DNA from: Hadesarchaea archaeon | Lineage (GTDB): Archaea > Hadarchaeota > Hadarchaeia > Hadarchaeales > Hadarchaeaceae | DNA length: 64,000 nt | Assembly: GCA_030601675.1 (NCBI GenBank) | Contig: JAUWBN010000004.1 | Span: 2,113-66,112 of the forward strand | Reading direction: 5' to 3' | Made by a program: the position numbers and the translations under genes | The notes under the pieces: generated by a model | Databases searched by the model: none | What the model was told of the DNA's origin: nothing | What the model saw: only the letters and a program-made list of their open reading frames with translations | In this document: one piece after another, positions 2,786 to 55,970 of the stretch | Layout of the letters: the number at the start of each line of letters is the position of its first letter | How positions within the stretch are numbered: the stretch's first letter is position 1

Positions 2786-3478
2786 CTACCTCCTAAGACG
2801 AAGCTCTTGGATGCCCAAGGCCTCCTCATATACATAGATCGCCCGCGCGATAACGGTTGGGGCGCGGAGCGATTCGGGGTCTATGCTCACCAGCTCGTCG
2901 GAAAGCTCGGCAACGTTCGATAAAAACTCGCCGCGCGGAAATCCGCCAACCACCGCACAAACCTCGTCCTCCTTCGAGATGCCGTCGAAGAGCTCCCCGC
3001 AGAGCTTTCGCTGCCCCCGCTCGCTAAAAATTATGACTTTCTTCGGCTTGATTCGTTCGATTAGCTCGGCAAGCGAGGCGTTTTCTAGGCGGAGCAAAGG
3101 CTTCTCGGGCGGTGCTTCGCCTGCGAGGAAGAGGTGCTCGATCAGCCCGGCGAAGCGATTGAACATCCGGGGGAGGCGCGTTGCGGGGTCAAGCGTGATG
3201 AGTTTGTTGTGGCGGGTGTGTACATAGACTCTTAACAGACCCTCCATGTTGAGCGGCGTGTCGAGCGCGAGGAGCAGGCAGCGGTGGACGATGTCGGGCC
3301 TCCCACGCCTGTCCCCGTCCGGAAGCCTTCGCATCGCTGGATAATGGAGGCTCGAGTTAAGCAATATCTCCGTCGGCCTCCTCCCCCGGCGGCGCGCGCT
3401 CCACTGGATGACGCGGTGCGAGGCTATCTCGCGGGGCACGGGTTCGAGCTCGGAATCCGCTAATACGAGGTGGAGCAA
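2786..3478 (-). CDS. nep1: Ribosomal RNA small subunit methyltransferase Nep1 (EMG1 family)
   Basis: 230 aa, TTG start. Motifs LVLADSELEPVP, RGRPDIVHRCLL, TRLPRMFNRFAGL and VVGGFPRGEF match the SPOUT-fold Nep1 family. Confidence 0.85.
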   Translation of the reverse strand: MLHLVLADSELEPVPREIASHRVIQWSARRRGRRPTEILLNSSLHYPAMRRLPDGDRRGRPDIVHRCLLLALDTPLNMEGLLRVYVHTRHNKLITLDPATRLPRMFNRFAGLIEHLFLAGEAPPEKPLLRLENASLAELIERIKPKKVIIFSERGQRKLCGELFDGISKEDEVCAVVGGFPRGEFLSNVAELSDELVSIDPESLRAPTVIARAIYVYEEALGIQELRLRR

Positions 3479-3583
3479 GCGAGCACCAAACCCACTTCGG
3501 CAAAGGGCTATTTTAATCTAAGATAAACAGAACAAGGCGCCCAACGCTCGATGAAAGATTGAAACACGCTCGTGTGGGATTGA

Positions 3584-4279
3584 ATGTTCCCCCTCAAGGA
3601 CGAGAACCCGACCCGGAGAAGGCCTATCCTCACTTATGCTTTGATTATCGTGAACGTCGCGATTTTCGTGGGAACGCTGGCCACGGGGACCTTTGGTCAA
3701 TCGATTGAGGAGTTCGGGATGAAGCCGAAAGAAGTGCTTGCAGGGCAGAACCTCCACACCCTCTTCACCTCGATGTTCCTGCACGGGGGGTTCCTGCACA
3801 TCCTGTTCAACATGTGGTACCTCTGGATCTTCGGCGACAACATCGAGGACATTCTCGGCAGGGGTAAATTCATCCTGTTCTACCTCGGCACGGGTCTGGT
3901 GGCCAGCCTCGTGCATACTTTTTCTGACCCAGGCTCGATGATTCCGACAATTGGGGCCTCGGGGGCCATCGCGGGGGTGCTCGGGGCCTACATGATTCTG
4001 TACCCGTGGGCCCGGGTGCACACGGCCGTCATTTTCTTTATTATCGTTCATCTGGTCATGGTGCCGGCGGTCGTGATAATAGGTCTCTGGTTCGTGCTGC
4101 AGGTGCTGTCGGCGTCGGTGCTTTGGGCGGCGGGGACGACCGCAGGGGTGGCGTACTGGGCGCACATCGGCGGATTCCTAGCGGGCATGCTTTTGATCCT
4201 GCCGGTGTGGATGAAACTCAGGAAGCGGAGGAGGGCTAGATACGTTTACACTTTGCGGTATGGCCGTGAGCTTCGCTGA
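3584..4279 (+). CDS. Rhomboid family intramembrane serine protease
   Basis: 231 aa, polytopic. MFLHGGFLHILFNMWYLWIFG, the catalytic-Ser motif GASGAIAGVLGAY and a downstream AHIGGFLAG His motif. Confidence 0.85.
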   Translation: MFPLKDENPTRRRPILTYALIIVNVAIFVGTLATGTFGQSIEEFGMKPKEVLAGQNLHTLFTSMFLHGGFLHILFNMWYLWIFGDNIEDILGRGKFILFYLGTGLVASLVHTFSDPGSMIPTIGASGAIAGVLGAYMILYPWARVHTAVIFFIIVHLVMVPAVVIIGLWFVLQVLSASVLWAAGTTAGVAYWAHIGGFLAGMLLILPVWMKLRKRRRARYVYTLRYGRELR

Positions 4280-4296
4280 GTGATCGAATTTATGAA

Positions 4297-4373
4297 TGGT
4301 GCGGCAGGCGGGATTCGAACCCGCGTCGCGAGCTTGGCAAGCTCGTGTCATAACCAAGCTAGACTACTGCCGC
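4297..4373 (-). tRNA. tRNA-Gly (anticodon GCC), 3' CCA encoded
   Basis: Minus-strand read GCGGCAG-TA-GTCT-AGCTTGGTTA-TGAC-A-CGAGC-TTGCCAA-GCTCG-CGAC-GCGGG-TTCGAAT-CCCGC-CTGCCGC-A-CCA. This gives a 7-bp acceptor stem, 5-bp anticodon and T stems, a canonical T-loop and anticodon GCC. Confidence 0.85.
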
Positions 4374-4604
4374 CCAAAGAGAAAGTTGTCCAGCCACAAT
4401 TAAACGTTTTCTTAACACTCAACCGATGATCGCTGCAAGCATCTGCCCTCCGACGACCGCGCCGAGGGTGAAGACCCCCAGCGCCACCGGCAGGGAGCGG
4501 GCGAGCACCACGCGCTTCGCGAGCGGGTCATCGCCGAGCTCATCTCCCGAGGGGACACCTCCAAGAGACGGTCGACCGCTGTCAAGACCGCCTCGAACGT
4601 CAGC

Positions 4605-4913
4605 TCATCCCCCATCCTCACCCAACTCCTCCAGCCTCCCCTCGACCTCAGACAGCTTCCGCTCGCTCTCGGGCTCACGCCTGAGGCGAAGGCGCCGCCT
4701 GAGTTCGCCGCGGAGGGTCCTGAGCAGGTCCACCTCGGCCGATAGCAGAAGCTTCGCCAGCGGGGGACGGGCTTGCTTTGGGTAGCGAGAGCGCTCGAGC
4801 AAAGTCAAGCCGATGTGCCAGGCAACAGCTAACACGGCCACCGCTGGCAAGGTGTCCAATTCACCCGCCGAGGCTTTGGGTGGCGGTTGTTTAAAAAGAG
4901 GAAACTTCGGCAA
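4605..4913 (-). CDS. Hypothetical protein (one hydrophobic segment plus Arg/Glu-rich helix)
   Basis: 102-aa ORF only, with no recognisable motif. GC-rich context makes chance ORFs common. The frame stays open past its TGA (see findings). Confidence 0.3.
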   Translation of the reverse strand: MPKFPLFKQPPPKASAGELDTLPAVAVLAVAWHIGLTLLERSRYPKQARPPLAKLLLSAEVDLLRTLRGELRRRLRLRREPESERKLSEVEGRLEELGEDGG

Positions 4914-4936
4914 AAGCTAATGAACTATTGTAGACA

Positions 4937-5596
4937 TTGAAGCTTGGTGAACCCGTGGTGAAAGGACCCTCCTCATTCGTCTTTCTGCTCGTGCGCCCGG
5001 GCTCCGGGAAGTCAGCCGTCTACCGCATGTTGGGGCAGAGGTTGCGCGAGGAAGGCTTGGTGAGCGATATCACGCGCATCGACGACTTCCCCGTGCTCAG
5101 GGAGCTGCTCGACCGCGACGTTGGATTCAAACGTCACTACCGAAAAGAGGGCGGCTTCGTCGTTACTGATTTCACGATTCTCGACGACGTGCTCAAAGAA
5201 ATCAACCGCAAGCTCAAGGAGCTCGAGCAGCCGGGCAGGGTGACCTTCATCGAGTTCGCCCGCGACCGATACGCCGATGCGCTCAAGAATTTCGACCGCG
5301 AAGTACTGGGGCGCTCGCTAATCCTCTACATTTACTGCCCGTTCGACATCTGCGTGGAGCGAAACGTTCGGAGGTTCAGGGAAGCTCGGGGCAAGGATAT
5401 CGACGACCACATCGCCCCCACCGACATCATGGAGCGCTACTACAAATACGACGACTACGAGGAGCTGTACCTAATAGAGGAGGCCGAACTGAAGCAGCAA
5501 GCCCCGGCGCCGCTTTTGGTGGTGCGCAACGATGTGGAAGGATTAGAGAGATTAAAGCGAGAGTTAGAAAAAGTCGTTGAAATATTCAAAATTTAG
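4937..5596 (+). CDS. P-loop kinase-like protein (hypothetical)
   Basis: 219 aa, TTG start. Walker-A-like LLVRPGSGKS near the N-terminus. The rest is unassigned. Confidence 0.5.
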   Translation: MKLGEPVVKGPSSFVFLLVRPGSGKSAVYRMLGQRLREEGLVSDITRIDDFPVLRELLDRDVGFKRHYRKEGGFVVTDFTILDDVLKEINRKLKELEQPGRVTFIEFARDRYADALKNFDREVLGRSLILYIYCPFDICVERNVRRFREARGKDIDDHIAPTDIMERYYKYDDYEELYLIEEAELKQQAPAPLLVVRNDVEGLERLKRELEKVVEIFKI

Positions 5597-5613
5597 GCTT
5601 ACCCAATATATTT

Positions 5614-5636
5614 AAATTTAGGCATACCTAAAATTT
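5614..5636. promoter_or_regulatory. Putative DtxR/IdeR-family operator overlapping the dtxR-feoB promoter
   Basis: Inverted repeat AAATTTAGG-CATA-CCTAAAATTT. It lies 6 nt upstream of ATG 5642, just downstream of an ATATATTTAAAT TATA-like element (5606-5617). A related half-site TTTAGGCTTACCC lies at 5592-5604. It resembles the TTAGG…CCTAA iron-box architecture. Confidence 0.5.
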
Positions 5637-5641
5637 AAGCG

Positions 5642-6259
5642 ATGATTACCGAAAGTACTGAAGAGTATTTGGAAGCAATCTACCGCTTACGCGAGCGGGG
5701 AGAGGCTGCCACTACTACGGGCGTAGCTAAGGAGCTCAAGGTGGCGCCCGCAAGTGTAACCGAGATGCTGAAAAAATTGGCTAATCAAGGGTACCTGAAA
5801 TACGCTCCCTACCGAGGGGTCACTTTAACACCAAAAGGAGAAAAAATCGGGGAAAAAATTCTGAGGAAACATCGGATAATGGAAAAGTTTCTGAGCACAT
5901 TGGGCTTACCAAAATCCAGGGTCCACAAAGACGCATGCGAGCTGGAGCACCACATCCCCGACGACCTCGAGAGGGCCATCCACCAAAAGGTTGAAGGCGA
6001 AAAACCGCTGCCTTCTGGAGCCCCCAGCAACGTCATGCCGCTCACTAGCCTGTTGGACGGGCAGAAGGGAGTCATCTCGTTCATCGGGGGCGGGCGGGGT
6101 GCTTCCCAGAGACTTGCGGACCTTGGGTTAACTCCTCACACGGAGATAACGGTCGTCAAGTCGGCCCTGTTTCACGGTCCGCTGATGATTTCCGTGCGGG
6201 GAACCACGTTGGCGATCGGCCGTGGCGTGGCGGCCAGAGTTTTTGTGAGAGCGAAATAG
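5642..6259 (+). CDS. DtxR/MntR-family metal-dependent transcriptional regulator fused to a FeoA-like domain
   Basis: N-terminus TEEYLEAIYRLRERGE…ASVTEMLKKLANQGYL…HRIMEKFL (DtxR wHTH plus dimerisation domain). C-terminal SH3-like FeoA segment (LTSLLDGQKGVISFI…LADLGLTPHTEITVV…). Stop abuts the feoB ATG. Confidence 0.85.
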   Translation: MITESTEEYLEAIYRLRERGEAATTTGVAKELKVAPASVTEMLKKLANQGYLKYAPYRGVTLTPKGEKIGEKILRKHRIMEKFLSTLGLPKSRVHKDACELEHHIPDDLERAIHQKVEGEKPLPSGAPSNVMPLTSLLDGQKGVISFIGGGRGASQRLADLGLTPHTEITVVKSALFHGPLMISVRGTTLAIGRGVAARVFVRAK

Positions 6260-46454: not shown

Positions 46455-46601
46455 ACAAAAAAGTAGAACCGACTAATAAATCTAAAAAAGTTTGGAAAAT
46501 TTAGGAAAATTTTGTCCATTCCTCCAACTTTTCAGGATTTTTTCCTATTATAAAGAACCCCCAATCACCTGATATTTAATGGCGCAAAATAATCTAGGTT
46601 G

Positions 46602-48197
46602 ATGTCAATGTTGGCCCAGTTTAAGATCGAGAGATTGAAACACAACGGAGTGCTCGTCCCGATCTACGAATTCCAAGGCTTCACCATCTCCCACAAGGAC
46701 AAGCGAATCAAATTGACCCCGGAGCAGGAGGAGATGGCGGTCTCGTGGGTCAAGAAGCTGGGGACTGACTACGTGGAGGACCCGGTCTTCGTCAGAAACT
46801 TCGCCGGTGACTTCTCGAAGGCCCTGGGCCTCGAAACCCCAGCCAAGATGGAGGACTTCGATTTCCCGGAGATCATCCGATGGGTGGAGGCCGAAAAAGC
46901 GAAAAGGGAGGCGATGTCGCGCGAGGAGAGGAAAAATCTCGCCGAGGTCAGGAAAAAAGCCAGGGAGGAGAACAAGCAGAGATATGGGTATGCCGAGGTG
47001 AACGGCGAGGTCATCGAGATCGGCAGCTACACCGTAGAACCTCCCTCGATATTTATGGGGCGTGGGAAGCACCCGCTCCGAGGCCGGTGGAAACCGAGGG
47101 TCAATTATGAAGACATTATCCTGAACCTGTCACCCGATGCCCCAACCCCGGAACCTTCAAGCGGTGGACACTGGAAGGAAAAGGTCTTCGATCCGCATGC
47201 CCTCTGGATAGCCAAGTGGCAGGACAAGCTCAGCGGGGAGCTCAAGTATCTATGGATAGCCGACACCGCGCGCTTCAAGCAGGAGCGCGAGATCGAAAAG
47301 TTCAACAGGGCGCGCGAGCTGGAGGGGCTCGTCGGGAGGGTTCGGCAGCACATCGAGGGGAACCTGGCCTCGGAGGAAATCGCCCGGCGCAAAATAGCGA
47401 CAGTGTCTTACCTGATCGACAACCTGAAGCTCAGGGTCGGTGACGAGAAGGACAAGGACGAGGCCGATACCATTGGGGCCACGACCCTGAGGGGCTCGCA
47501 CATCAAGATAGACGGCTCCGAGCTTGTGAAATTTGACTTTCTGGGCAAGGACTCGGTGCGATGGCGCATGACCATCAAGCCGCCGACCCAAGTCGTGAAT
47601 AACCTGAGGTCCTTCATCGAGAAGCCCAGGGCGCCCATTTTCTCGGGGGTCCGCTCGGAGCACGTGAACGCTTTTTTGGGCCAAGTCATGCCCGGGCTCA
47701 CGGCCAAGGTCTTCAGGACCTATCACGCCTCGAAGGTCGTCAGGGAGTACCTGGCGGGTTCCAAAGTTCGGCCGGAAGCCCAGGATTTCGAGAAGAATTA
47801 TGTGGCCAAGCTCGCGAACCTCGAGGCGGCGATCACCTGCCACCACAAGCGGAAGCTCCCGGAGAACTGGAAGGAATCCCTCGGGAAAAAGGTGGACCGC
47901 CTGAAGGCCTTGGAGGCGAAGCTGAAGGAGGTCAGGGGAAGGCCCCGCTCCCGCGCGCGCGCAAGGCGGATAAAGAGCCTCCGAAGGCGGGTAAGGGCTG
48001 CTAGGCTTAAGGTGAAGCTGGCAAGGGCCACGCGCAACTACAACCTCGGGACATCGCTCAAATCTTACATCGACCCGCGCCTCTACGTCGGGTGGGCGGA
48101 GGAGGTTTCATACGACTGGAAAAAGATCTACCCCAAGGCCCTCCAGCGGAAGTTCGCTTGGGCTGAGGATGTCCGGGAGACGGTATTCAAACGGTAA
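46602..48197 (+). CDS. Eukaryote-type DNA topoisomerase IB
   Basis: All catalytic-pentad contexts of human Top1 are recognisable: IGATTLRGSHI (Arg), FDFLGKDSVRW (Lys), TAKVFRTYHAS (Arg), CHHKR (His) and LGTSLKSYIDPRLYVGW (active-site Tyr). Confidence 0.92.
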   Translation: MSMLAQFKIERLKHNGVLVPIYEFQGFTISHKDKRIKLTPEQEEMAVSWVKKLGTDYVEDPVFVRNFAGDFSKALGLETPAKMEDFDFPEIIRWVEAEKAKREAMSREERKNLAEVRKKAREENKQRYGYAEVNGEVIEIGSYTVEPPSIFMGRGKHPLRGRWKPRVNYEDIILNLSPDAPTPEPSSGGHWKEKVFDPHALWIAKWQDKLSGELKYLWIADTARFKQEREIEKFNRARELEGLVGRVRQHIEGNLASEEIARRKIATVSYLIDNLKLRVGDEKDKDEADTIGATTLRGSHIKIDGSELVKFDFLGKDSVRWRMTIKPPTQVVNNLRSFIEKPRAPIFSGVRSEHVNAFLGQVMPGLTAKVFRTYHASKVVREYLAGSKVRPEAQDFEKNYVAKLANLEAAITCHHKRKLPENWKESLGKKVDRLKALEAKLKEVRGRPRSRARARRIKSLRRRVRAARLKVKLARATRNYNLGTSLKSYIDPRLYVGWAEEVSYDWKKIYPKALQRKFAWAEDVRETVFKR

Positions 48198-48289
48198 ACC
48201 GATTTTGGGGGGCGTCATTTTTGTTGGTTTTTAGAATTTTTCAATATTATCAAAAGTATGTTTAACGATTTACTTTAGCCCCTGGGTGG

Positions 48290-49249
48290 CTATCCGCGGT
48301 GTTTAACGGCCCTTGCGTGCTTCTCGCGTCCGACCTCCTCGAGGTAGCGGCGCAGGGTCTCCCTTCGAATGTACCAGCGACCCCCTCGCTTGACCGCGTC
48401 GATCCTACCCTTCCGCGCGAGCAGCCCCCAATATTCGACGCTGAATGGCGTTTCCCTCGCCGCCTCGGCTAGGGGGATGAATGTCGTTTCCGGCGTTGCA
48501 GCTTCGATTGCGGCGAGGTATAAATCGAGGGATTGCTCGACGCAGCGCCCGATGAAGTTGACGAAGGGGCGGGGGGCGCCGAAGTGGGCCCGCTCCAATG
48601 AATCGTAGTAGCGCCCCCGCTCCTCTCGACGGACGTAAGCGATGGGGTAGCCATGGTGCAGGAGAAAGAGGTTCATCAGGAGCCTGGCGACGCGGCCGTT
48701 GCCGTCGACGAATGGATGAACGTGGACGAGCTTGAAGTGCGCCAGCCCGGCCAGCTCAACCGGCCGCAGCTCCTCCGGGTTGCCGTTCAGCCAGCCGATG
48801 TATTCAGTCATGAGGAAGGGAACCTCGTAGGGTGGCGGGGGCCTGTAACGGCTGCCCGTGATCGCGACCTGCCCGCGACGATAGGCTCCCGGCTCGGCCT
48901 CCCCGATTCCCTTCATCGCGACGCCATGGAGGTATAGGATGTCCTTTTCGCTGGTCGGCTTCTTGCCTTGAGCGAGGCGCTCGATGAACTCGATGGCCTT
49001 GGGGTGGTTGATTGCCTCGAGGTGGTAGCGGAGGGGCTTCCCCTTGACGGTGATTCCCTCCTGGATCACCAGCTGGGTCTCCCGAAGGGTCAGGGTGTTT
49101 CCCTCGATGACGTTCGTGTGGTAGGTGTACTCGATCACGAACTGCTCGCGGAGCTTCTCCAGCATCTCGGTGGAGAGGGGGCGGTGCACATCCAGCCTGC
49201 GCTTCTTCTCCAGCAGCCTTTGGTGCAGGCGCTCGCTTAACTGAACCAT
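48290..49249 (-). CDS. Fic/Fido-domain protein (class II, intramolecular inhibitory motif) with C-terminal DNA-binding-like tail
   Basis: Fic motif HPFVDGNGRVARLLMN. N-terminal TNVIEGN matches the [ST]xxxE[GN] inhibitory helix. C-terminus …GGRWYIRRETLRRYLEEV resembles excisionase/MerR-type HTH proteins. Confidence 0.88.
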   Translation of the reverse strand: MVQLSERLHQRLLEKKRRLDVHRPLSTEMLEKLREQFVIEYTYHTNVIEGNTLTLRETQLVIQEGITVKGKPLRYHLEAINHPKAIEFIERLAQGKKPTSEKDILYLHGVAMKGIGEAEPGAYRRGQVAITGSRYRPPPPYEVPFLMTEYIGWLNGNPEELRPVELAGLAHFKLVHVHPFVDGNGRVARLLMNLFLLHHGYPIAYVRREERGRYYDSLERAHFGAPRPFVNFIGRCVEQSLDLYLAAIEAATPETTFIPLAEAARETPFSVEYWGLLARKGRIDAVKRGGRWYIRRETLRRYLEEVGREKHARAVKHRG

Positions 49250-49483
49250 ATCGATTCCATATTTTTATAGATAAACCGATACTTAAAAATATCGTTTTTA
49301 AGGGGTAGGAGCTCACGTTGGGGGGCTGGTAGACCTGACCTGGGGCCGGGCACCATCAGTGTGCGGGCTGCCACGGGCCGCTGAGCGCGCAGGAGCGCTC
49401 GGAGGGGGCGGAGCCCTGCTCGAACTGCGAGCTCGAGGAGACGGGGACGAAAAGGTCAAATTTCTAATTACCAGTTAAAGCTT

Positions 49484-49732
49484 TCATCGCCGCAATATCG
49501 CAGCAAACAAAATACATACCGCTCCTAATAAAATGGCGATTTTTACAAATTCAAGTGCAAACCTCACATTTTGAATTACTTGATGCGCCAGCGGATTTGA
49601 TGCTACTTGGTCCTGAAGGGTTTCTACGGTACTCTCTGCTACATCTGTCTCGCTGGGAATGTTCAGCACTATCCCCATAACCAGAACGATTAGCACGGAT
49701 ATCGCGCTGATTTCAGCTTTCATGGTTATCAT
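49484..49732 (-). CDS. Small two-TM membrane protein (hypothetical)
   Basis: 82-aa ORF in AT-rich DNA. Hydrophobic N- and C-termini. Confidence 0.4.
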   Translation of the reverse strand: MITMKAEISAISVLIVLVMGIVLNIPSETDVAESTVETLQDQVASNPLAHQVIQNVRFALEFVKIAILLGAVCILFAAILRR

Positions 49733-49782
49733 CAGTCATAATTTTTACAAAACCAGCTATTTAAGCATTTAAAGCATTTAGA

Positions 49783-49886
49783 ACTTCTTCAAAAACTCCT
49801 CGATTACCCCCGATTCTTGGCATCCAACCCGTAGAGCTCGTACACCAGCTCGTCGATTTCCCGCTCCAGCCCCCCGGCCCTAATTC
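49783..49886 (-). pseudogene. Remnant of the C-terminus of a GC-rich type IIG/N6-MTase homologue
   Basis: My translation is …GGLEREIDELVYELYGLDAKNRG*. After a 1-nt shift in a G-run it continues VIEEFLKKF*. Compare the C-terminus of the intact 884-aa enzyme, AEIDKLVYKLYVTEPEEKIIEESLR. Confidence 0.5.
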
Positions 49887-49949
49887 AACGCCAAACACCC
49901 TTATGAGTGCTCATGGAATTTTATTTTTCTTCTTTTAGACAGTTTAAAT

Positions 49950-52604
49950 TTATCTCAAGCTTTCCTCAATAATTTTCTCTTCAGGTTCAGTTACATACAA
50001 CTTATAGACCAATTTGTCGATCTCCGCATCTGTTTTCTTGATTTCTTCTTCTATTCTCATCCTTTCATCAGTCTTCTTGTCGCCGATTTCGTTGAGGCGC
50101 TTGTTCAAAGAAAAAATTTTGCGAGCATGAGCAATTACTTTTTTGTACTCTGGTTTTCCTTTATAATCACATAGGGGCATTTTTGAGATGTGATACTTGT
50201 CTAATCTCATTGTTCTAATAGCTTTGGCGTATATGAATCTATAAGCATACCAAGACATTAATTTAGAATTTAATAATGCCACTAAGAATAATTTGTCAAT
50301 CTTATCGCCTTTTACGAATATACAACCAACATTATCTAATGCAAGCAGTCTCTTTTCGTCAATAGTAGCCATGATTATAATATGATCCCTTGGTTTAGTT
50401 ATATGAGCAACGATATTCTGTATTACTATTTTTGGTTGTAATAAGTAGTTCGCTTTTGTTTCAATTTTTTTAAAATCACCTTTTGTCACATACTCCTTAA
50501 TTTCTTTAATTAAATATCTCCCTATACTTTTTCCACGCAATACTGGAATTTCACCTCCTTCTTTTTTCAAGAAATGTTGAATTATTAAGCCTCTTTTTAT
50601 GGTAGCTACATCTGAGATATAGTTACCTGTGTTAATTTTAATTGCTAAAGCTAATTCCTCATCGGAAACATCATTAATCAGGTTACCAAACTTGTCAATA
50701 AGTGATTTTTCTACTTCTATGGGTTTTTGTTTTGAATCAATAAAATCGATCAAATACTTTTTTTGATTAGAATTCTTTTTTATAATTATTATAATTTGTT
50801 CTAGAAGAACATCTTTAAACGCCTTGCTAACATCAACTACGGATACCAAATCATTTCTTATAAATTCTCTGCAAGCAGCCCATTTTTGGCTGTAAATCAA
50901 CGGTTTTGGTACAATTAATCCCAAGTAGCCATTTTTCTTCAATAAGTTATAAGCCCTGTTTATGAATGCAATGGCAGTATCTGTATTATTTTTTGTAGCT
51001 GGATAATTATTTAACAAAAATTTTCTTTCTTTATCATTTAATTTGGCACCATAGGGCGGATTCCCAATCACAACATCAAAACCGCCTTCGTCCATTATTT
51101 GCTTGAATTCTTGTTCCCATTTGAAAGCCTTGTTCCCTGCGACTTTTTTATCATCAATCAAAGAATTACCGCATTTTACATTCTGCCGTAGCAAAGGCAA
51201 TCTCCGTCTTTTCTCTGTAATTCTTAATAAAAGACTGAGCTGAGCAATTTCTACCGCTTTCGTGTCCAAATCAACGCCAAAAATGTTGTTCTGCAAAATC
51301 TTCACTTTTTTTGTGAAGGGTAATCCCATTTCCAAATCGAGCTGTGTTTGGCCATAGTCTTTATCCGTCTTGCTATGGAATTCGTTCAGAATATCAAGGG
51401 CCTTTATCAAGAATGAACCAGAACCACAAGCAGGATCTAAGACCCTAATTTTTTCAACATCTACCTTTTTGTCTTTAAGCAATTCGCCTAAAGTGTTTCT
51501 TACGATGTAATCAACAATGTAAGTGGGTGTGTAGTAAATCCCCTGTTCTTTGCGTCGGGCATACTTTTCTTTCAGAACGGCCCGCTTCGCTGTCTTCTTT
51601 AGAATGTAGCCCAAGTACTGCTCATACACATTACCGAGAACATCAGCATCTAGCGCGGAAAAATCATACTTTATTGTCTTATCTTTTGTGTGGTCAAGGC
51701 CGTTTATTATTTCTTCAAGAACTTGGTTACTTACATCCAAATCATCGCATAAATGACGTCGAAACAGCTTGCCATTGTACTCCACATCAAAATGGTTGAA
51801 AACATCAATTATTCGTTCGGCGAGTGTGCCTTTGCGTTTGCTTTTCCATTCCCGCATCGCAGATAACAATTTTGGTGGCTCTAGTTCTCTATCTTCACAG
51901 TTTCTAATGAAAATTAGTCTGTCTATAATTCTCTGAACAGCCTCGTCCAATTCCTCCTCGGTGAGACGCTTGTCTTTGTTTCGCTCTAGAATATCCTTGG
52001 AGAGCTTGGCCCGCCATGTAGTCAAATCGTTGAGCAACTGTTCGCTTACAGGGGTTTTCTTAGTTTTTTTACCCCACTTTACAGCTTCTTTGTCTAATAA
52101 GCCCTGTTCAAAACCTTCTTTAGACAAAAGCCATAACTCCTCAAATCTGTCTAAAAATTCTTGACGAGAGATAGTTATCGGACGACTTTGAGACGGGTCG
52201 GTGGTTTTCCACTCTGCATTAAATATTTTTACGCCTTGATCAAAATCAGTAAGAACAGCCCAAGTGCAGCCCTTGTGCCAAGCATAATTTATTGCTTGTT
52301 CTGCAAACTCGGGATCATCCAAGTCCGCTTTTAGTGCCTTTGCTTCAAGAAAGAATTTTGGGATTCCGTTAATTCTAAAACCGTAATCAACCCTCCCTTT
52401 TGATATTGTTTCTTCTCTGGTAACTTCATCGCGATTACGTACATCCCAACCCAAAGCTTCAAACAAAGGTTCTATAAATTCAGCTTTGGTATCCGCCTCG
52501 GTATACTTGCTGAATTTTTTCTCTTCGACAACTTTATCGTATTTCTCAAGAAGTCCCTTTATCTTCTGTTTGGCGTCTTCCTTGTTCACCATAGTTTGCC
52601 CCAT
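49950..52604 (-). CDS. Type IIG restriction-modification enzyme (PD-(D/E)xK nuclease plus N6-adenine DNA methyltransferase plus specificity region)
   Basis: N-terminal HSDR_N-like nuclease (GRVDYGF…FFLEAKAL). MTase motif I VLDPACGSGSFL and motif IV VIGNPPYG. TaqI-C-like target-recognition region. The gene is strongly AT-rich relative to the window. Confidence 0.88.
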   Translation of the reverse strand: MGQTMVNKEDAKQKIKGLLEKYDKVVEEKKFSKYTEADTKAEFIEPLFEALGWDVRNRDEVTREETISKGRVDYGFRINGIPKFFLEAKALKADLDDPEFAEQAINYAWHKGCTWAVLTDFDQGVKIFNAEWKTTDPSQSRPITISRQEFLDRFEELWLLSKEGFEQGLLDKEAVKWGKKTKKTPVSEQLLNDLTTWRAKLSKDILERNKDKRLTEEELDEAVQRIIDRLIFIRNCEDRELEPPKLLSAMREWKSKRKGTLAERIIDVFNHFDVEYNGKLFRRHLCDDLDVSNQVLEEIINGLDHTKDKTIKYDFSALDADVLGNVYEQYLGYILKKTAKRAVLKEKYARRKEQGIYYTPTYIVDYIVRNTLGELLKDKKVDVEKIRVLDPACGSGSFLIKALDILNEFHSKTDKDYGQTQLDLEMGLPFTKKVKILQNNIFGVDLDTKAVEIAQLSLLLRITEKRRRLPLLRQNVKCGNSLIDDKKVAGNKAFKWEQEFKQIMDEGGFDVVIGNPPYGAKLNDKERKFLLNNYPATKNNTDTAIAFINRAYNLLKKNGYLGLIVPKPLIYSQKWAACREFIRNDLVSVVDVSKAFKDVLLEQIIIIIKKNSNQKKYLIDFIDSKQKPIEVEKSLIDKFGNLINDVSDEELALAIKINTGNYISDVATIKRGLIIQHFLKKEGGEIPVLRGKSIGRYLIKEIKEYVTKGDFKKIETKANYLLQPKIVIQNIVAHITKPRDHIIIMATIDEKRLLALDNVGCIFVKGDKIDKLFLVALLNSKLMSWYAYRFIYAKAIRTMRLDKYHISKMPLCDYKGKPEYKKVIAHARKIFSLNKRLNEIGDKKTDERMRIEEEIKKTDAEIDKLVYKLYVTEPEEKIIEESLR

Positions 52605-52617
52605 TTATGAGATTTGG
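52539..52617. repeat. Direct repeat copy A (5' end plus leader of the type IIG gene)
   Basis: GTATTTCTCAAGAAGTCCCTTTATCTTCTGTTTGGCGTCTTCCTTGTTCACCATAGTTTGCCCCATTTATGAGATTTGG aligns with 53695-53773. Most positions are identical by eye, with one 1-nt indel. Confidence 0.7.
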
Positions 52618-52717
52618 AATTTTTAGGTATTAAACTGCTCTATTTCGTAAAGTCTAATCCTCGAACGATTTTTTGCGTAGGAAACTAATTATATTGCAAA
52701 ACCTATTAGACTAAACT

Positions 52718-53581
52718 ATGAACGAGAAAAAGGAAAACGATCGTCTAGACGCTTTTTTGGATAGTTATGATTATTCCTTTTGGCATCATAAAATCGTTTC
52801 AATAGACGAGATGAACAAAGACGCAAGTTTCATCAATAAAGTGTCGGCCAAAATGATAGGCGGCGATGTCGAAAAAATAAAAAGAAGTCTTGCGTTCGAG
52901 ATGTTCATGACAAGTCAACACCTCATCGAAACTCTATTCATGCTAATCGGAGCATTCACCTATAATCCTAAAGATCCGTGGGCTTGGATAAATGATAGGG
53001 AAAACTATGCTTTCAAAATATCAAATCCTATCAAAGATGGGAACTACCAAGAATTTTTAGATGTGCTTAATCTAAAAACTACCAGCGAGTATGTTCGTTA
53101 TTTGTTCTACAATATCCCAACTCTACCAGAATCTAAAGAAAAATTAGATAGTCAAATAGAGCCAACTAAAGAGTGTTTAAAGCGTTTAGCAATAGAACGT
53201 TCACTTAACGATGATTTGTATAATGCATACAAACATGGCTTTATTGCCCTTCGCGGTACTGCAAAAATCAGTTACCAGAAGCCTTCACGAAAGATAGATG
53301 TCCATTTCCCAGAGATCCCGATGGTTTTTGCCCTACCGAAAAAACGTGACAAAAAAATAATAGTGGAATTTGAAGGTGAACCTAAATTTTTTGATACCGG
53401 AATAGATTTTGCAAAATTAGATTATGAAAGGCAATATAAAATTTCAAAGCTTGCCTTATTTTTAATAAGAGACATCATAGAGTCTAGAAGAATTAAAATT
53501 CACAGGGTAGATAGTATCAAAATCGAACCATTACCCGTCGTAGAAGAAATAGTAAAGATTTTTGGATTTGGTGAGAAATAA
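52718..53581 (+). CDS. Hypothetical protein (orphan, island-borne)
   Basis: 287-aa ORF in AT-rich DNA, divergent from the type IIG gene. Predicted mostly helical N-terminal half. LYNAYKHGFIALRG is the only motif-like segment. No family recognised. Confidence 0.6.
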   Translation: MNEKKENDRLDAFLDSYDYSFWHHKIVSIDEMNKDASFINKVSAKMIGGDVEKIKRSLAFEMFMTSQHLIETLFMLIGAFTYNPKDPWAWINDRENYAFKISNPIKDGNYQEFLDVLNLKTTSEYVRYLFYNIPTLPESKEKLDSQIEPTKECLKRLAIERSLNDDLYNAYKHGFIALRGTAKISYQKPSRKIDVHFPEIPMVFALPKKRDKKIIVEFEGEPKFFDTGIDFAKLDYERQYKISKLALFLIRDIIESRRIKIHRVDSIKIEPLPVVEEIVKIFGFGEK

Positions 53582-53640
53582 GAATATCGAGCACTCGACG
53601 GACAAAAAACGCCCCACTATCAAGTTAGCTGAAGTACTAA

Positions 53641-53761
53641 TTAATTTTTGTGCGGAAAATCTATTTTTGGGTAAAGCTCCTCGATGACCATCCTGTATTT
53701 CTCAAGGAGTCCTTTTATTTGCTGTTTGGCATTTTCCTTGTTCATCACGATGTTGCCCCAT
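53641..53761 (-). pseudogene. Remnant of the N-terminus (and leader) of a type IIG RM homologue
   Basis: Reads ATGGGGCAACATCGTG-ATGAACAAGGAAAATGCCAAACAGCAAATAAAAGGACTCCTTGAGAAATAC…, giving MNKENAKQQIKGLLEKYRMVIEE…, then a stop after 34 codons. Compare the intact gene MGQTMVNKEDAKQKIKGLLEKYDKVVEE. Confidence 0.55.
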
Positions 53762-53773
53762 TTGTGAGATTTG
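53695..53773. repeat. Direct repeat copy B (matches 52539-52617)
   Basis: GTATTTCTCAAGGAGTCCTTTTATTTGCTGTTTGGCATTTTCCTTGTTCATCACGATGTTGCCCCATTTGTGAGATTTG. Confidence 0.7.
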
Positions 53774-53858
53774 TTTTTTTGGGTAAATTATTCTGCCGAA
53801 ACAACGCTCGGGCGAAACTCCGTGCTCAAACCTATTATAGAAGAAGCCAAAAAATGGG

Positions 53859-55970
53859 TTGGGGGTTTACCTGGGCAAGACCCTTATCGTGTGCGAGAAG
53901 CCGAGCGCGGCCGTCAAGATAGCCTCCGCCCTCGCGGCGAAGCGACCTAAAAAGGGGGACTTCAACGGCGTCCCCTACTACGAGTTCGAGCGCGACGGCG
54001 AGCGGATGGTCGTCGTCCCGGCCCTTGGGCACCTCTTCACCCTCAAGAACCTGAAGCCCATGCGCACGTACCCCGTCTACGATATCGACTGGATGCCCTC
54101 GCACGAGGTGGACCGTAAAGCGAAGCGCACCCAGGTTTTCGTCGAGGCAATCCGCGAGCTGGCGAGGGACGCGAGCGACTACATCAGCGCCTGCGATTAC
54201 GACCTCGAGGGGAGTTTGATCGGCTACAATGTGCTCAAGTACCTCTGCGGCGAGGAGGCGGTCAAACGCGCGAGACGGATGAAGTTCTCAACCCTCACCG
54301 CGCAGGACCTTCGGCAGGCCTACGAGGAGCTGATGCCCCGCCTCGATTTCGAGCTCATCGATGCCGGGATAGCTCGTCATGTGCTCGATTGGTACTATGG
54401 CATGAATATTTCGAAAGCGATGAGCGCGGCTGTCGAAGAGGCACAACAACGTTTCGCCAAGCTCTCCGCTGGTCGCGTGCAGACCCCGACGCTTAAAATC
54501 CTGGTCGAACGCGAACGCGAGATCAAGGCGTTCAAGCCCGAGCCCTTCTGGGTCCTGGGTTTGCTGCTTGAGCTGGAGGGAAAGGAGGTCATCGCTGAAC
54601 ATGCGACGCCCCGCTTTTTTGACAAAGCGGAGGCCGAACGCGCGCTAGCCGCCTGCAAGGACAAACCCGCAAAAGTCTCCACGATTCAAACCCGCCAGTA
54701 CCGCCGCCCACCACCGATCCCGTTCGACCTCGGACTCCTGCAAGCGGAGGCGTACCGCTGCTTCGGCTACACCCCGATGCGGACGCAGCAGCTCGCGCAG
54801 ATCCTCTACCAAGCCGCGCTCATAAGCTACCCTAGGACAAGCAGCCAGAAGCTCCCCCCGACGATCAACTACGCCAAGATCATCAGGCAACTGGGTGGAA
54901 TTTCAAAACAATACAAGAAGATCGCCGATGAGCTGCTCGCCGCGCCGGAGCTGAAACCCAACGAAGGCAAAAAAATTGATCCCGCGCACCCAGCATGCTT
55001 CCCGACGGGCGAGAGACCCGAGCGACTCGTGGGCCCCCAGAAGCGCCTGTACGACCTCATCGCCCGGCGCTTCTTCTCGGTCTTCGGAAAGCCGGCCCTC
55101 GCGGAGAGCATCCGGGTCGAGCTAGACGTCGGGGGGCAACCCTTCTTCCTGCGGGGGCGGCGGGTGCTCGAGGAGGGGTGGCTCGCCTACTACGGCCGCT
55201 ACGGGGCCACCGAGGAGATAATCCTGCCGCAGCTGGTCCAGGGGCAACGGCTCGCGGTGAAGGAAGTGAAGTTCGAGGATAAGAAGACTCAGCCCCCGCC
55301 CCGCTACAATCCCTCCTCGATCGTCAAGGAGATGGAGGCGAGAAATTTGGGGACCAAGGCCACGCGTGCCACCCTCCTGCAGAACATCTACATACGTGGG
55401 TACATCTTCGGCAACCAGATCGTCGTCACCGACCTGGGAATCGAGGTAATCGACGCCCTCCTCAAGCACTGCCCCGAGATCGTGAGCGAGGAGCTGACCG
55501 CGCAGTTCGAGCGCGAGATGGAGGCTATCCGAGAGGGAAAGCGCGACAAGGAGGAGGTCATCGAGAAGGCGAGGAGGGAGCTCGACCGGCTCCTGAAGAA
55601 GTTCAAAACGCACCAGCTCGAGATCGGGAAGCAGCTTGGCGAGGCCTACCGCATCACCCGCCAGAAACAGCGAATCATGGGCACCTGCGCGAAGTGCGGC
55701 GGGGATTTGAAAGTGGTCGTCTCGCGGGCCACCCACAAGCGCTTCGCGGGGTGCTCGAACTACCCGAAGTGCACGAACTCATTCCCCCTGCCCCAGTTCG
55801 GGATGATCATCTCGCTCGGTAAGACCTGCGAACAGTGCGGGGTCCCGATGATTCAGGTGAACCGCATCGGGATGAGGCCCTACCGGATGTGCTTGGACCC
55901 GAAGTGCCCGAGCAAAGCAAATTGGGGCAAGAAAAAACGGGCAAGATCAAAGCGCCCGGAAAGCGGTTAG
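53859..55970 (+). CDS. topA: DNA topoisomerase I (type IA, archaeal TopA)
   Basis: Toprim LIVCEKPSAA…ACDYDLEGSLIG. Active-site region LISYPRTSSQ (Tyr). C-terminal zinc ribbons CAKCGG…CSNYPKC and CEQCG…CPSK. TTG start. Confidence 0.9.
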   Translation: MGVYLGKTLIVCEKPSAAVKIASALAAKRPKKGDFNGVPYYEFERDGERMVVVPALGHLFTLKNLKPMRTYPVYDIDWMPSHEVDRKAKRTQVFVEAIRELARDASDYISACDYDLEGSLIGYNVLKYLCGEEAVKRARRMKFSTLTAQDLRQAYEELMPRLDFELIDAGIARHVLDWYYGMNISKAMSAAVEEAQQRFAKLSAGRVQTPTLKILVEREREIKAFKPEPFWVLGLLLELEGKEVIAEHATPRFFDKAEAERALAACKDKPAKVSTIQTRQYRRPPPIPFDLGLLQAEAYRCFGYTPMRTQQLAQILYQAALISYPRTSSQKLPPTINYAKIIRQLGGISKQYKKIADELLAAPELKPNEGKKIDPAHPACFPTGERPERLVGPQKRLYDLIARRFFSVFGKPALAESIRVELDVGGQPFFLRGRRVLEEGWLAYYGRYGATEEIILPQLVQGQRLAVKEVKFEDKKTQPPPRYNPSSIVKEMEARNLGTKATRATLLQNIYIRGYIFGNQIVVTDLGIEVIDALLKHCPEIVSEELTAQFEREMEAIREGKRDKEEVIEKARRELDRLLKKFKTHQLEIGKQLGEAYRITRQKQRIMGTCAKCGGDLKVVVSRATHKRFAGCSNYPKCTNSFPLPQFGMIISLGKTCEQCGVPMIQVNRIGMRPYRMCLDPKCPSKANWGKKKRARSKRPESG

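Follow-up and report, generated by a model that had tools for sequence, protein, structure and literature searches.

Bacterial genomes harbor defence islands, as well as defence hotspots flanked by core genes. To our knowledge, strain-variable restriction-modification (R-M) hotspots that retain decayed gene ends are well known in bacteria and have seldom been documented in archaea. Insertion with long target duplication was reportedly described by Nobusato et al. in 2000. Here we analyze an R-M locus in a 64-kb stretch of DNA (hereafter the window), which is contig 11 of an archaeal metagenome-assembled genome (MAG; 0.94 Mb, 86% complete) from the Hadarchaeota, labelled G000. The locus is an AT-rich island between the genes for a eukaryote-type TopoIB and topA, and it holds an intact type IIG R-M gene, a gene of 287 amino acids (aa) and the relics of two type IIG gene ends.

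A close described parallel is R-M allelic substitution at a fixed locus, as at hsd in E. coli (Furuta, Abe and Kobayashi, 2010, Nucleic Acids Research 38:2428, PMC2853133). The present locus resembles it in its conserved flanking genes, in its foreign codon usage and in that unrelated or distant R-M genes, or nothing, are found at the same place in close relatives (PMC2853133); here, however, the host is an archaeon of the Hadarchaeota, the decayed ends of what appear to be two earlier occupants are readable, and one relic is common to three species. The same source gives criteria and further cases for insertion with long target duplication (PMC2853133), with which the locus shares ~100-bp direct repeats of one target segment around an insert and the lack of a mobility gene, whereas its repeats are 71-83% alike and its insert is a non-R-M gene upstream of the R-M gene. 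As in bacterial defence hotspots, a SoFic-like Fic gene, a type IIG R-M gene and a HEPN-like gene stand between core genes, with cargo that varies in relatives, but this hotspot is small (2-6 kb), belongs to a ~1-Mb archaeal genome and involves no integrase or tRNA. The locus offers a well-resolved case, from an archaeon, of R-M turnover processes that are already known, and the motif-bordered cassettes described below as a side lead may be new. Bacterial-type R-M turnover, with allelic substitution, recognition-domain exchange and occupant scars, also takes place in an archaeal lineage of the deep subsurface whose genome has ~1 Mb.

Variable content of the TopoIB-topA interval

GC content falls from ~0.60-0.65 in the flanks to 0.28-0.43 over positions 49500-53800, which confirms the compositional drop reported in a first-pass annotation of the window. 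Between the C-terminal relic and the topA leader lies a 3.9-kb segment (49887-53795) of foreign AT-rich DNA, and the flanking core genes (eukaryote-type TopoIB, topA and RFC) have a GC content of ~0.6 and a GC content at third codon positions (GC3) of 0.77-0.83. A public contig of 4578 bp, assembled independently from the likely source run, aligns without gaps over 49417-53994 at 99.93% identity and crosses both island junctions, so the arrangement is not a binning or assembly artefact. The TopoIB gene (46599-48197) is a conserved core gene and one border of the interval. The other, fixed border is the topA upstream block together with topA (53796-55970, plus strand; topA gene 53859-55970; Pfam Topoisom_bac, 4.7e-119), and homology past the island picks up at 53796 in G003 (contig C37) and at 53838 in G013 (contig C49).

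The content between these borders differs among G000, G003:C37, G013:C49 and G010. Reading from the TopoIB end, G013:C49 has a block equivalent to 49367-49449, 1.9 kb of unrelated small AT-rich open reading frames (ORFs), the C-terminal relic, 116 unrelated bases and topA, with no R-M gene between TopoIB and topA. In G003:C37 the order from the topA leader is a different, 1034-aa gene of Eco57I/MmeI type, a 270-nt spacer, the C-terminal relic and other cargo. The first-pass annotation had proposed that R-M cargo was replaced at this locus and had suggested a comparison with relatives and strains; alternative cassettes were indeed found, in the form of the 1034-aa gene of G003:C37 and the 116 bp of G013:C49. 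The variation extends to strains of one sediment sample. In the likely source run (X1), the island and its exactly matching flank contigs have a depth of 13-16 and related flank contigs one of 35-50. A strain with the Fic gene and the island is present at a depth of ~15, and at least two related strains share the TopoIB/topA flanks and diverge after 48165-48207, with three different continuations after the end of TopoIB; strains without the island thus co-occur in the source sample. Given this variation, among species as well as among co-occurring strains, we consider it likely that in this Hadarchaeota genus the TopoIB-topA interval serves as a hotspot, occupied by accessory and defence genes, whose content is turned over by horizontal acquisition. 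Such a hotspot accounts for the tendency of metagenome assemblies of the genus to break at topA, where the contig ends inside or at this gene in nine of the 12 genus genomes that have it.

Two observations concern the relatives themselves. The AT-rich segment of G013:C49 (L025, 869-2671) encodes four ORFs of 144, 78, 136 and 241 aa, and only the first has a match, a weak one to HTH_Crp_2. In G003:C37 (L055, 5128-5322) the variable interval contains a 195-bp copy of the TopoIB 3' end, 94% identical to 48014-48208 of the window, and the TopoIB gene of G003 itself is on other contigs; this copy is another gene-end relic at the hotspot.

The type IIG gene and its recognition domain

The type IIG R-M gene (49950-52604, minus strand) encodes 884 aa and was correctly described as intact from its ORF, with Pfam, PADLOC and sequence motifs returning the full domain architecture. 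The nuclease domain (Pfam HSDR_N, 3.1e-09, aa 33-123) is of the PD-(D/E)XK type, with D73...E88-A-K90. The methyltransferase part is of the gamma class of N6-adenine enzymes (Pfam Eco57I, 2.2e-37; N6_Mtase, 1.2e-26) and carries the AdoMet motif DPACGSGSF at 390-398 and NPPY at 515-518; fused to it is a C-terminal recognition domain (Pfam TaqI_C, 2.5e-12, aa 687-811). The PADLOC model REase_MTase_IIG (PDLC03604) matches at 3.1e-109 over most of its length (aa 7-630), and the family comprises >7900 homologues from archaea and bacteria with 50-71% identity. The enzyme would be expected to methylate the DNA of its host and to cleave unmethylated invader DNA close to an asymmetric site that its recognition domain specifies. 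The true start of the gene is probably 52592 (codons M-V-N-K) and not the ATG at 52604: relatives and a second gene caller begin four codons later, at 52592, and the ATG corresponding to 52604 is out of frame in the N-terminal relic. Its GC3 of 0.36, against 0.77-0.83 for host genes, marks the current gene as compositionally foreign.

Besides the relic, the window genome has no second type IIG copy. In sister species, a module made of an iteron-like motif (described below), a 37-nt tail, a TATA box and a type IIG gene was found at two further, non-syntenic loci. The allele at G003:C2 is 66% identical in amino acids to the 884-aa enzyme and has the first 81 codons of the 287-aa gene upstream; the allele at G013:C52 is without the start of that gene. 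The G013:C52 allele (L031, 3532-6169) is split into ORFs of 446 and 436 aa by a ~95-nt deletion in the methyltransferase domain, and the reading frames of a further allele, at G055:C22 (L060, about 3390-5682), are interrupted, so that both look inactivated.

When compared with G003:C2 in bins, the 884-aa enzyme shows 72-98% identity over aa 1-500, 22-48% over aa 501-850 and 82% over the last 34 aa, and the metagenomic homologue P0043 shows the reverse of this pattern, which indicates a recombinant gene. The nucleotide alignment breaks at 50121 and 51052. In the other sediment runs X3 and X4 we found contigs in which 50105-51050 (944 nt) is exchanged for 1061 other letters at the same breakpoints. 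The exchangeable specificity module corresponds to aa ~500-850 (50057-51107, minus strand) and has the lowest GC content of the island, 0.30. These alignments show that the recognition domain has been exchanged between alleles, via recombination in the conserved methyltransferase core and in the last ~35 codons. Specificity swapping, as first proposed, is therefore upheld inside the gene, between alleles over aa 500-850; it does not run through the relics. Allelic diversity of the type IIG recognition domain has been described for bacteria (PMC2853133). As there, it is the recognition domain that is replaced, whereas the nuclease and methyltransferase parts before it and the extreme C-terminus after it stay conserved (PMC2853133), and the breakpoints recur in several genomes and samples; here, in contrast, the alleles compared are at different loci and in different species and not at one locus of one species. 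The methylomes of these strains should differ by recognition-domain allele.

Two type IIG relics

The C-terminal relic (49779-49886, minus strand; ~105 bp) consists of the last ~33 codons of a type IIG-family gene and reads ...LEREIDELVYELYGLDAKNRG, a frameshift, and VIEEFLKKF*. The frameshifted remnant noticed in the first-pass annotation is genuine, given that its peptide matches the C-termini of the family at G013:C52 (54%, E 2.5e-5) and G003:C2 (50%, E 1.2e-4), with 44% to the window's own gene. Copies were found in the sister species at G003:C37:3695-3769 (93%) and G013:C49:2710-2802 (87%). All three copies have an identical upstream truncation point and different frameshifts, and the one in G013 keeps the tail ...DREAIEELLKRF* in frame. 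The shared cut and the independent frameshifts imply that the loss of this first occupant is old, or was shared by exchange. The GC3 of the relic is host-like (25/30, 83%), against 14/35 in the tail of the present type IIG gene, and it has no nucleotide similarity to the 3' ends of the AT-rich alleles. The common truncation in three species together with the host-like codon usage indicate that the relic is old. As judged from its peptide and codon usage, these results show that a host-adapted gene of the type IIG family was once present here, of which only the last ~33 codons appear to survive.

The N-terminal relic (53677-53796, minus strand; ~120 bp) comprises a TATA region and a leader, followed by the 24 initial codons of a type IIG gene from the same family as the intact one; it abuts the topA upstream block and ends exactly where the second copy of the iteron-like motif (53646-53675) starts. 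The direct repeat of the 5' end of the resident gene reported earlier was recovered: 52521-52623 and 53677-53780 are 79-86% identical in two blocks, with BLAST aligning 92 nt at 82.6% identity (E 1e-18). Over the whole relic (about 53677-53796) identity to the resident 5' end is 71%, and 78% in the coding part, with a longest exact run of 12 nt. The coding part is 78-81% identical to each of the three alleles of the genus, which are 82-92% identical among themselves; roughly equidistant from all three, the relic is their outgroup, either an earlier divergent allele or an old decayed duplicate. Synonymous and non-synonymous differences over its 23 codons are too few for a decision. The relic was not found in G003:C37 or G013:C49, and was seen in the window genome only. 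Judging from their sequences, both relics are non-functional scars, and the C-terminal one probably comes from a different gene than the N-terminal one.

A similar pattern was seen for topA. Two sister species, G010 (L026, G010:C25, 2614-2766) and G001 (L033, G001:C1:343000-349000, 3582-3654), have a second, truncated topA 5' end 2-3 kb upstream of the intact gene. These copies cover ~25 codons and are cut at the same codon, and the G010 copy includes the promoter, the same promoter-plus-25-codon arrangement as in the type IIG relic. The copies are closer to topA of G000 (93%) than to the topA 5' end of their own genome (84-86%).

An iteron-like motif at cassette borders

Both joints around the 287-aa gene carry a 30-nt motif of the form TTTGCACAA-N7-TTTTCTGCACAAAA, to which a third repeat or a 37-nt tail is often added. 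Motif-a (52634-52700, minus strand; motif proper 52671-52700) is a degenerate repeat pair, with 5 mismatches over 23 specified positions, and its 37-nt tail reaches as far as the type IIG TATA box. Motif-b (53646-53675, minus strand) starts at the break of the N-terminal relic. There are no other sites in the 64-kb window, and the pair brackets the 287-aa gene. The motif-a element also precedes the G003:C2 allele, and half of it the G013:C52 allele. We discarded the idea of a high-copy repeat, since genus genomes have 1-3 copies (16 matches in 46 family genomes and 0 for a reversed control) and a search with <=3 mismatches gives one in the window genome. The copies sit at borders between GC-rich and AT-rich DNA, next to unrelated cargo and without a recombinase beside them.

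Comparison of orthologous positions shows solo and occupied states of the element. One intergenic site is empty in G002, G005 and G012, has a solo 67-nt element in G013 and G010, and in G000 (G000:C31:13897-14267) holds a 371-nt AT-rich cassette with a ~54-codon ORF bracketed by motif repeats. This cassette is flanked by an exact duplication, AGCTCGAGC(G), which against the empty sites is a target duplication of 9-10 bp. At G005:C10 two motif copies surround a 0.9-kb acetyltransferase-like cassette, and G002 appears to hold a solo motif at this place, as judged from only 12 nt of flank. The sites noted for the element include L095 2708-3078 (= G000:C31:13897-14267), L086 2927-2993 and L058 2979-3916. 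The bases 5' of the GCTTTGCAC end of the element are alike at five loci (TCGAG-type), including the ATCGAGGA of relic codons 22-24; the 5' flank of motif-b (...ATCGAGGA) is of the kind seen at this element end elsewhere. That the N-terminal relic was truncated by insertion of a motif element is a good lead, not established, which these flanks suggest.

A tentative extension, which we hold to be possible and well short of probable, is that an undescribed mobile-cassette system of Hadarchaeota made the N-terminal relic and delivered the 287-aa gene. Its 30-67-nt element, built of direct TTGCACAAAA-type repeats (two or three) and in some cases the 37-nt tail, would insert at TCGAG-type targets with a 9-10-bp duplication and then serve as a landing site, single AT-rich genes being added between two element copies by a recombinase that would be encoded elsewhere or is still unrecognised; an insertion at ATCGAGGAG (codons 22-24) would have truncated a type IIG gene. 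By analogy with integron cassettes and miniature inverted-repeat transposable elements, short conserved sites surround single genes, promoter-bearing or promoterless and of varied function, and solo and occupied sites exist at orthologous positions. In contrast to these, neither an integrase nor a transposase was found, the sites consist of direct iteron-like repeats and not of imperfect palindromes, and the 9-10-bp duplication, made at a palindromic TCGAG-type target, speaks for transposition and not for attC x attI recombination. If confirmed, motif-bordered cassettes would be a new handle on integrase-less uptake of accessory genes in streamlined archaea.

Origin of the mosaic

For the mosaic as a whole we propose successive replacements. 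An old host-adapted gene would have been lost, and an AT-rich type IIG cassette would then have settled beside topA. This cassette would later have been cut at codon 24 by incoming DNA with the iteron-like motif as its left end, which would have delivered the HEPN-like gene together with the present type IIG gene and the promoter of the latter, in one or two steps. Recombination in conserved gene ends, the route suggested in the first-pass annotation, does not fit these joints: next to each surviving relic the new gene has a complete end, and this, along with the missing nucleotide similarity at the 3' ends, indicates that the joints would be illegitimate or site-specific and not homologous crossovers. 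Each class of event has a bacterial precedent (PMC2853133). Readable relics of this kind provide a rare relative chronology of successive occupants.

Several points weigh against this history. No intact gene bearing the relic tail was found in 65 genomes of the order (peptide search) or in 46 family genomes (DNA search), so the ancestral gene is known from ~33 codons only. The C-terminal relics of G000 and G013 are 87% identical, and the fourfold-degenerate sites of the adjacent topA 75%, an excess of conservation that suggests constraint or recent exchange and not plain decay. The order of events is not fixable, and the empty state of G013 could be a later loss, because of the 116 unrelated bases there. 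Neither the ORF list nor Pfam shows a gene for a recombinase, integrase or transposase inside the island or close to it, and all the relatives compared are fragmented MAGs.

The nearest competitor for the N-terminal relic is an insertion with long target duplication, in which a single AT-rich type IIG gene beside topA received the motif element, with or without the 287-aa gene, just upstream of codon 25; ~120 bp, from the TATA box to codon 24, would have been duplicated and the left copy would have decayed into the relic. Both joints fit it exactly, the left copy ending at the left end of the element and the right copy beginning at the end of the tail, and the same element family makes a clean 9-10-bp duplication at G000:C31 relative to the empty sites. 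It is also in keeping with R-M-linked insertions with target duplications of >30 bp (PMC2853133), with repeats of >30 bp that here flank <20 kb of DNA without a mobility gene, and with the position of the relic as an equidistant outgroup to three alleles that share the element/promoter junction. On the other hand, the two copies are only 71-78% identical, and G003:C2 and G013:C52 share the element/promoter junction at other loci without a left copy, so the duplication would have to precede the divergence of the three alleles and be followed by loss of the left copy in the others. The insert between the repeats consists of the 287-aa gene and not of an R-M gene, no relative compared has a single-copy (empty) state at the locus, and the start of the left copy at the island border (53796) would be a coincidence, being expected for a separate earlier cassette. 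We regard this duplication as doubtful, and slightly favour serial replacement, given that the island border is precisely where the left copy starts. A single transfer of the whole 3.9-kb mosaic, N-terminal relic included, after its assembly in another genome would place that border just outside the promoter of the relic, where it is, and a module of motif, type IIG gene and start of the 287-aa gene does exist at another locus of G003; we found no other contig with the relic/motif junction, which is weak evidence as species representatives only were searched, and judge this transfer unlikely.

The first-pass annotation had seen in the two relics the ends of one ancestral gene that spanned the locus and lost its middle in a single replacement. 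Their common family, minus strand and correct order speak for this, and their GC3 values do not differ significantly (25/30 for the C-terminal and 14/23 for the N-terminal relic, p = 0.11). But the same C-terminal cut is present in G003 and G013, which both lack the N-terminal relic and have other DNA upstream of theirs, the GC3 of the C-terminal relic is host-like at 83%, and the N-terminal relic is 78-81% identical to AT-rich alleles to whose 3' ends the C-terminal relic has no nucleotide similarity. A single ancestral gene therefore seems improbable to us. A programmed switch would invoke the duplicated 5' ends or the motif pair as drivers of frequent, reversible R-M rearrangement (phase variation). 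The repeats are ~100-120 bp long, 1.16 kb apart and in register, so that recombination would yield an in-frame gene, and the motif pair brackets the 287-aa gene. However, the longest identical run of 12 nt makes the 5' repeats a poor recombination substrate, and there are neither inverted repeats nor a recombinase gene. No deletion or joined form between the repeats was present in the contigs of four runs, the source run among them, although contigs cannot show rare variants, and the joints that "go back" in run contigs belong to alleles of other organisms, at low depth. Such a switch appears highly implausible, and the view that the repeated 5' end still mediates rearrangement was not supported.

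A conserved 287-aa gene between the repeats

The 287-aa gene (52718-53581, plus strand) lies between the two copies of the 5' end, as first noted, but it is no orphan. Its full-length homologues, one of which belongs to a Hadesarchaea MAG, show 79, 65 and 48% identity, and the family comprises 35 representative clusters along with large unnamed bacterial clusters in the ESM Atlas, with E71, Y168, K172 and H173 invariant. It is a conserved unnamed family and a candidate defence effector. The AlphaFold model of the protein has a predicted local distance difference test (pLDDT) score of 90. There is no match in Pfam or PADLOC, and Foldseek against the PDB gives nothing at E <0.1. An exhaustive structural scan (VIA-align) returned Z scores of 5.1-6.5, mostly to HEPN proteins (7ae2, 1jog, 8xdj, 5yep, 2hsb, Csm6, LsoA and RnlA), and generic helical bundles score alike. 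On the model, the protein is a candidate for a HEPN-like helical core with a beta insert. The canonical HEPN Rx4-6H is lacking; the consensus in the candidate helix is Y-N-x-Y-K-H-G, with a tyrosine at the presumed place of the arginine.

Elsewhere, the homologues are not beside type IIG genes, and their neighbours include HEPN_AbiV, a helicase, ParA and a Shedu-type gene (SduA_C). The 287-aa gene is best seen as an independent defence-island gene and not as an R-M partner. The possibility that the motif is part of a mobile unit of this gene was rejected, given that homology with contig L069 is limited to 52705-53587, that is, to the ORF itself, without the motif. No convincing target-site duplication was found around the motif-bracketed gene; a 7/9 match, TCGAGGA, is inside the conserved tail of the element.

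Other features of the interval

Between TopoIB and the C-terminal relic the window has three further features. The Fic/DOC gene with a C-terminal HTH (48290-49249, minus strand; Pfam Fic, 2.5e-23, and HTH_17; PADLOC SoFic, 4.9e-33) is GC-rich yet belongs to the variable interval: it is present in G000 and G010 and missing at the same place in G013, and its depth in the source run (16) equals that of the island, against 43-75 for the core flanks. A GC-rich conserved block (49343-49449, plus strand) reads as the shortened remnant of a small zinc-ribbon gene, with Cys-x2-Cys and no in-frame start codon; it matches G013:C49 708-790 (88%), G010:C41 (97.7%) and part of a Cys-rich 138-aa ORF in G003:C37. 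An RNA gene or riboswitch was ruled out for the GC-rich blocks, as Rfam has no match at E <=1. Likewise, integration at a tRNA was rejected, the sole tRNA of the window being at 4297. On the far side of the C-terminal relic, a second variable segment holds a hydrophobic 82-aa ORF (49484-49732, minus strand) with no Pfam or PADLOC match. This region is unalignable with G013, G003 and G010, and the ORF is specific to the window genome and was also called as a gene on a Logan contig.

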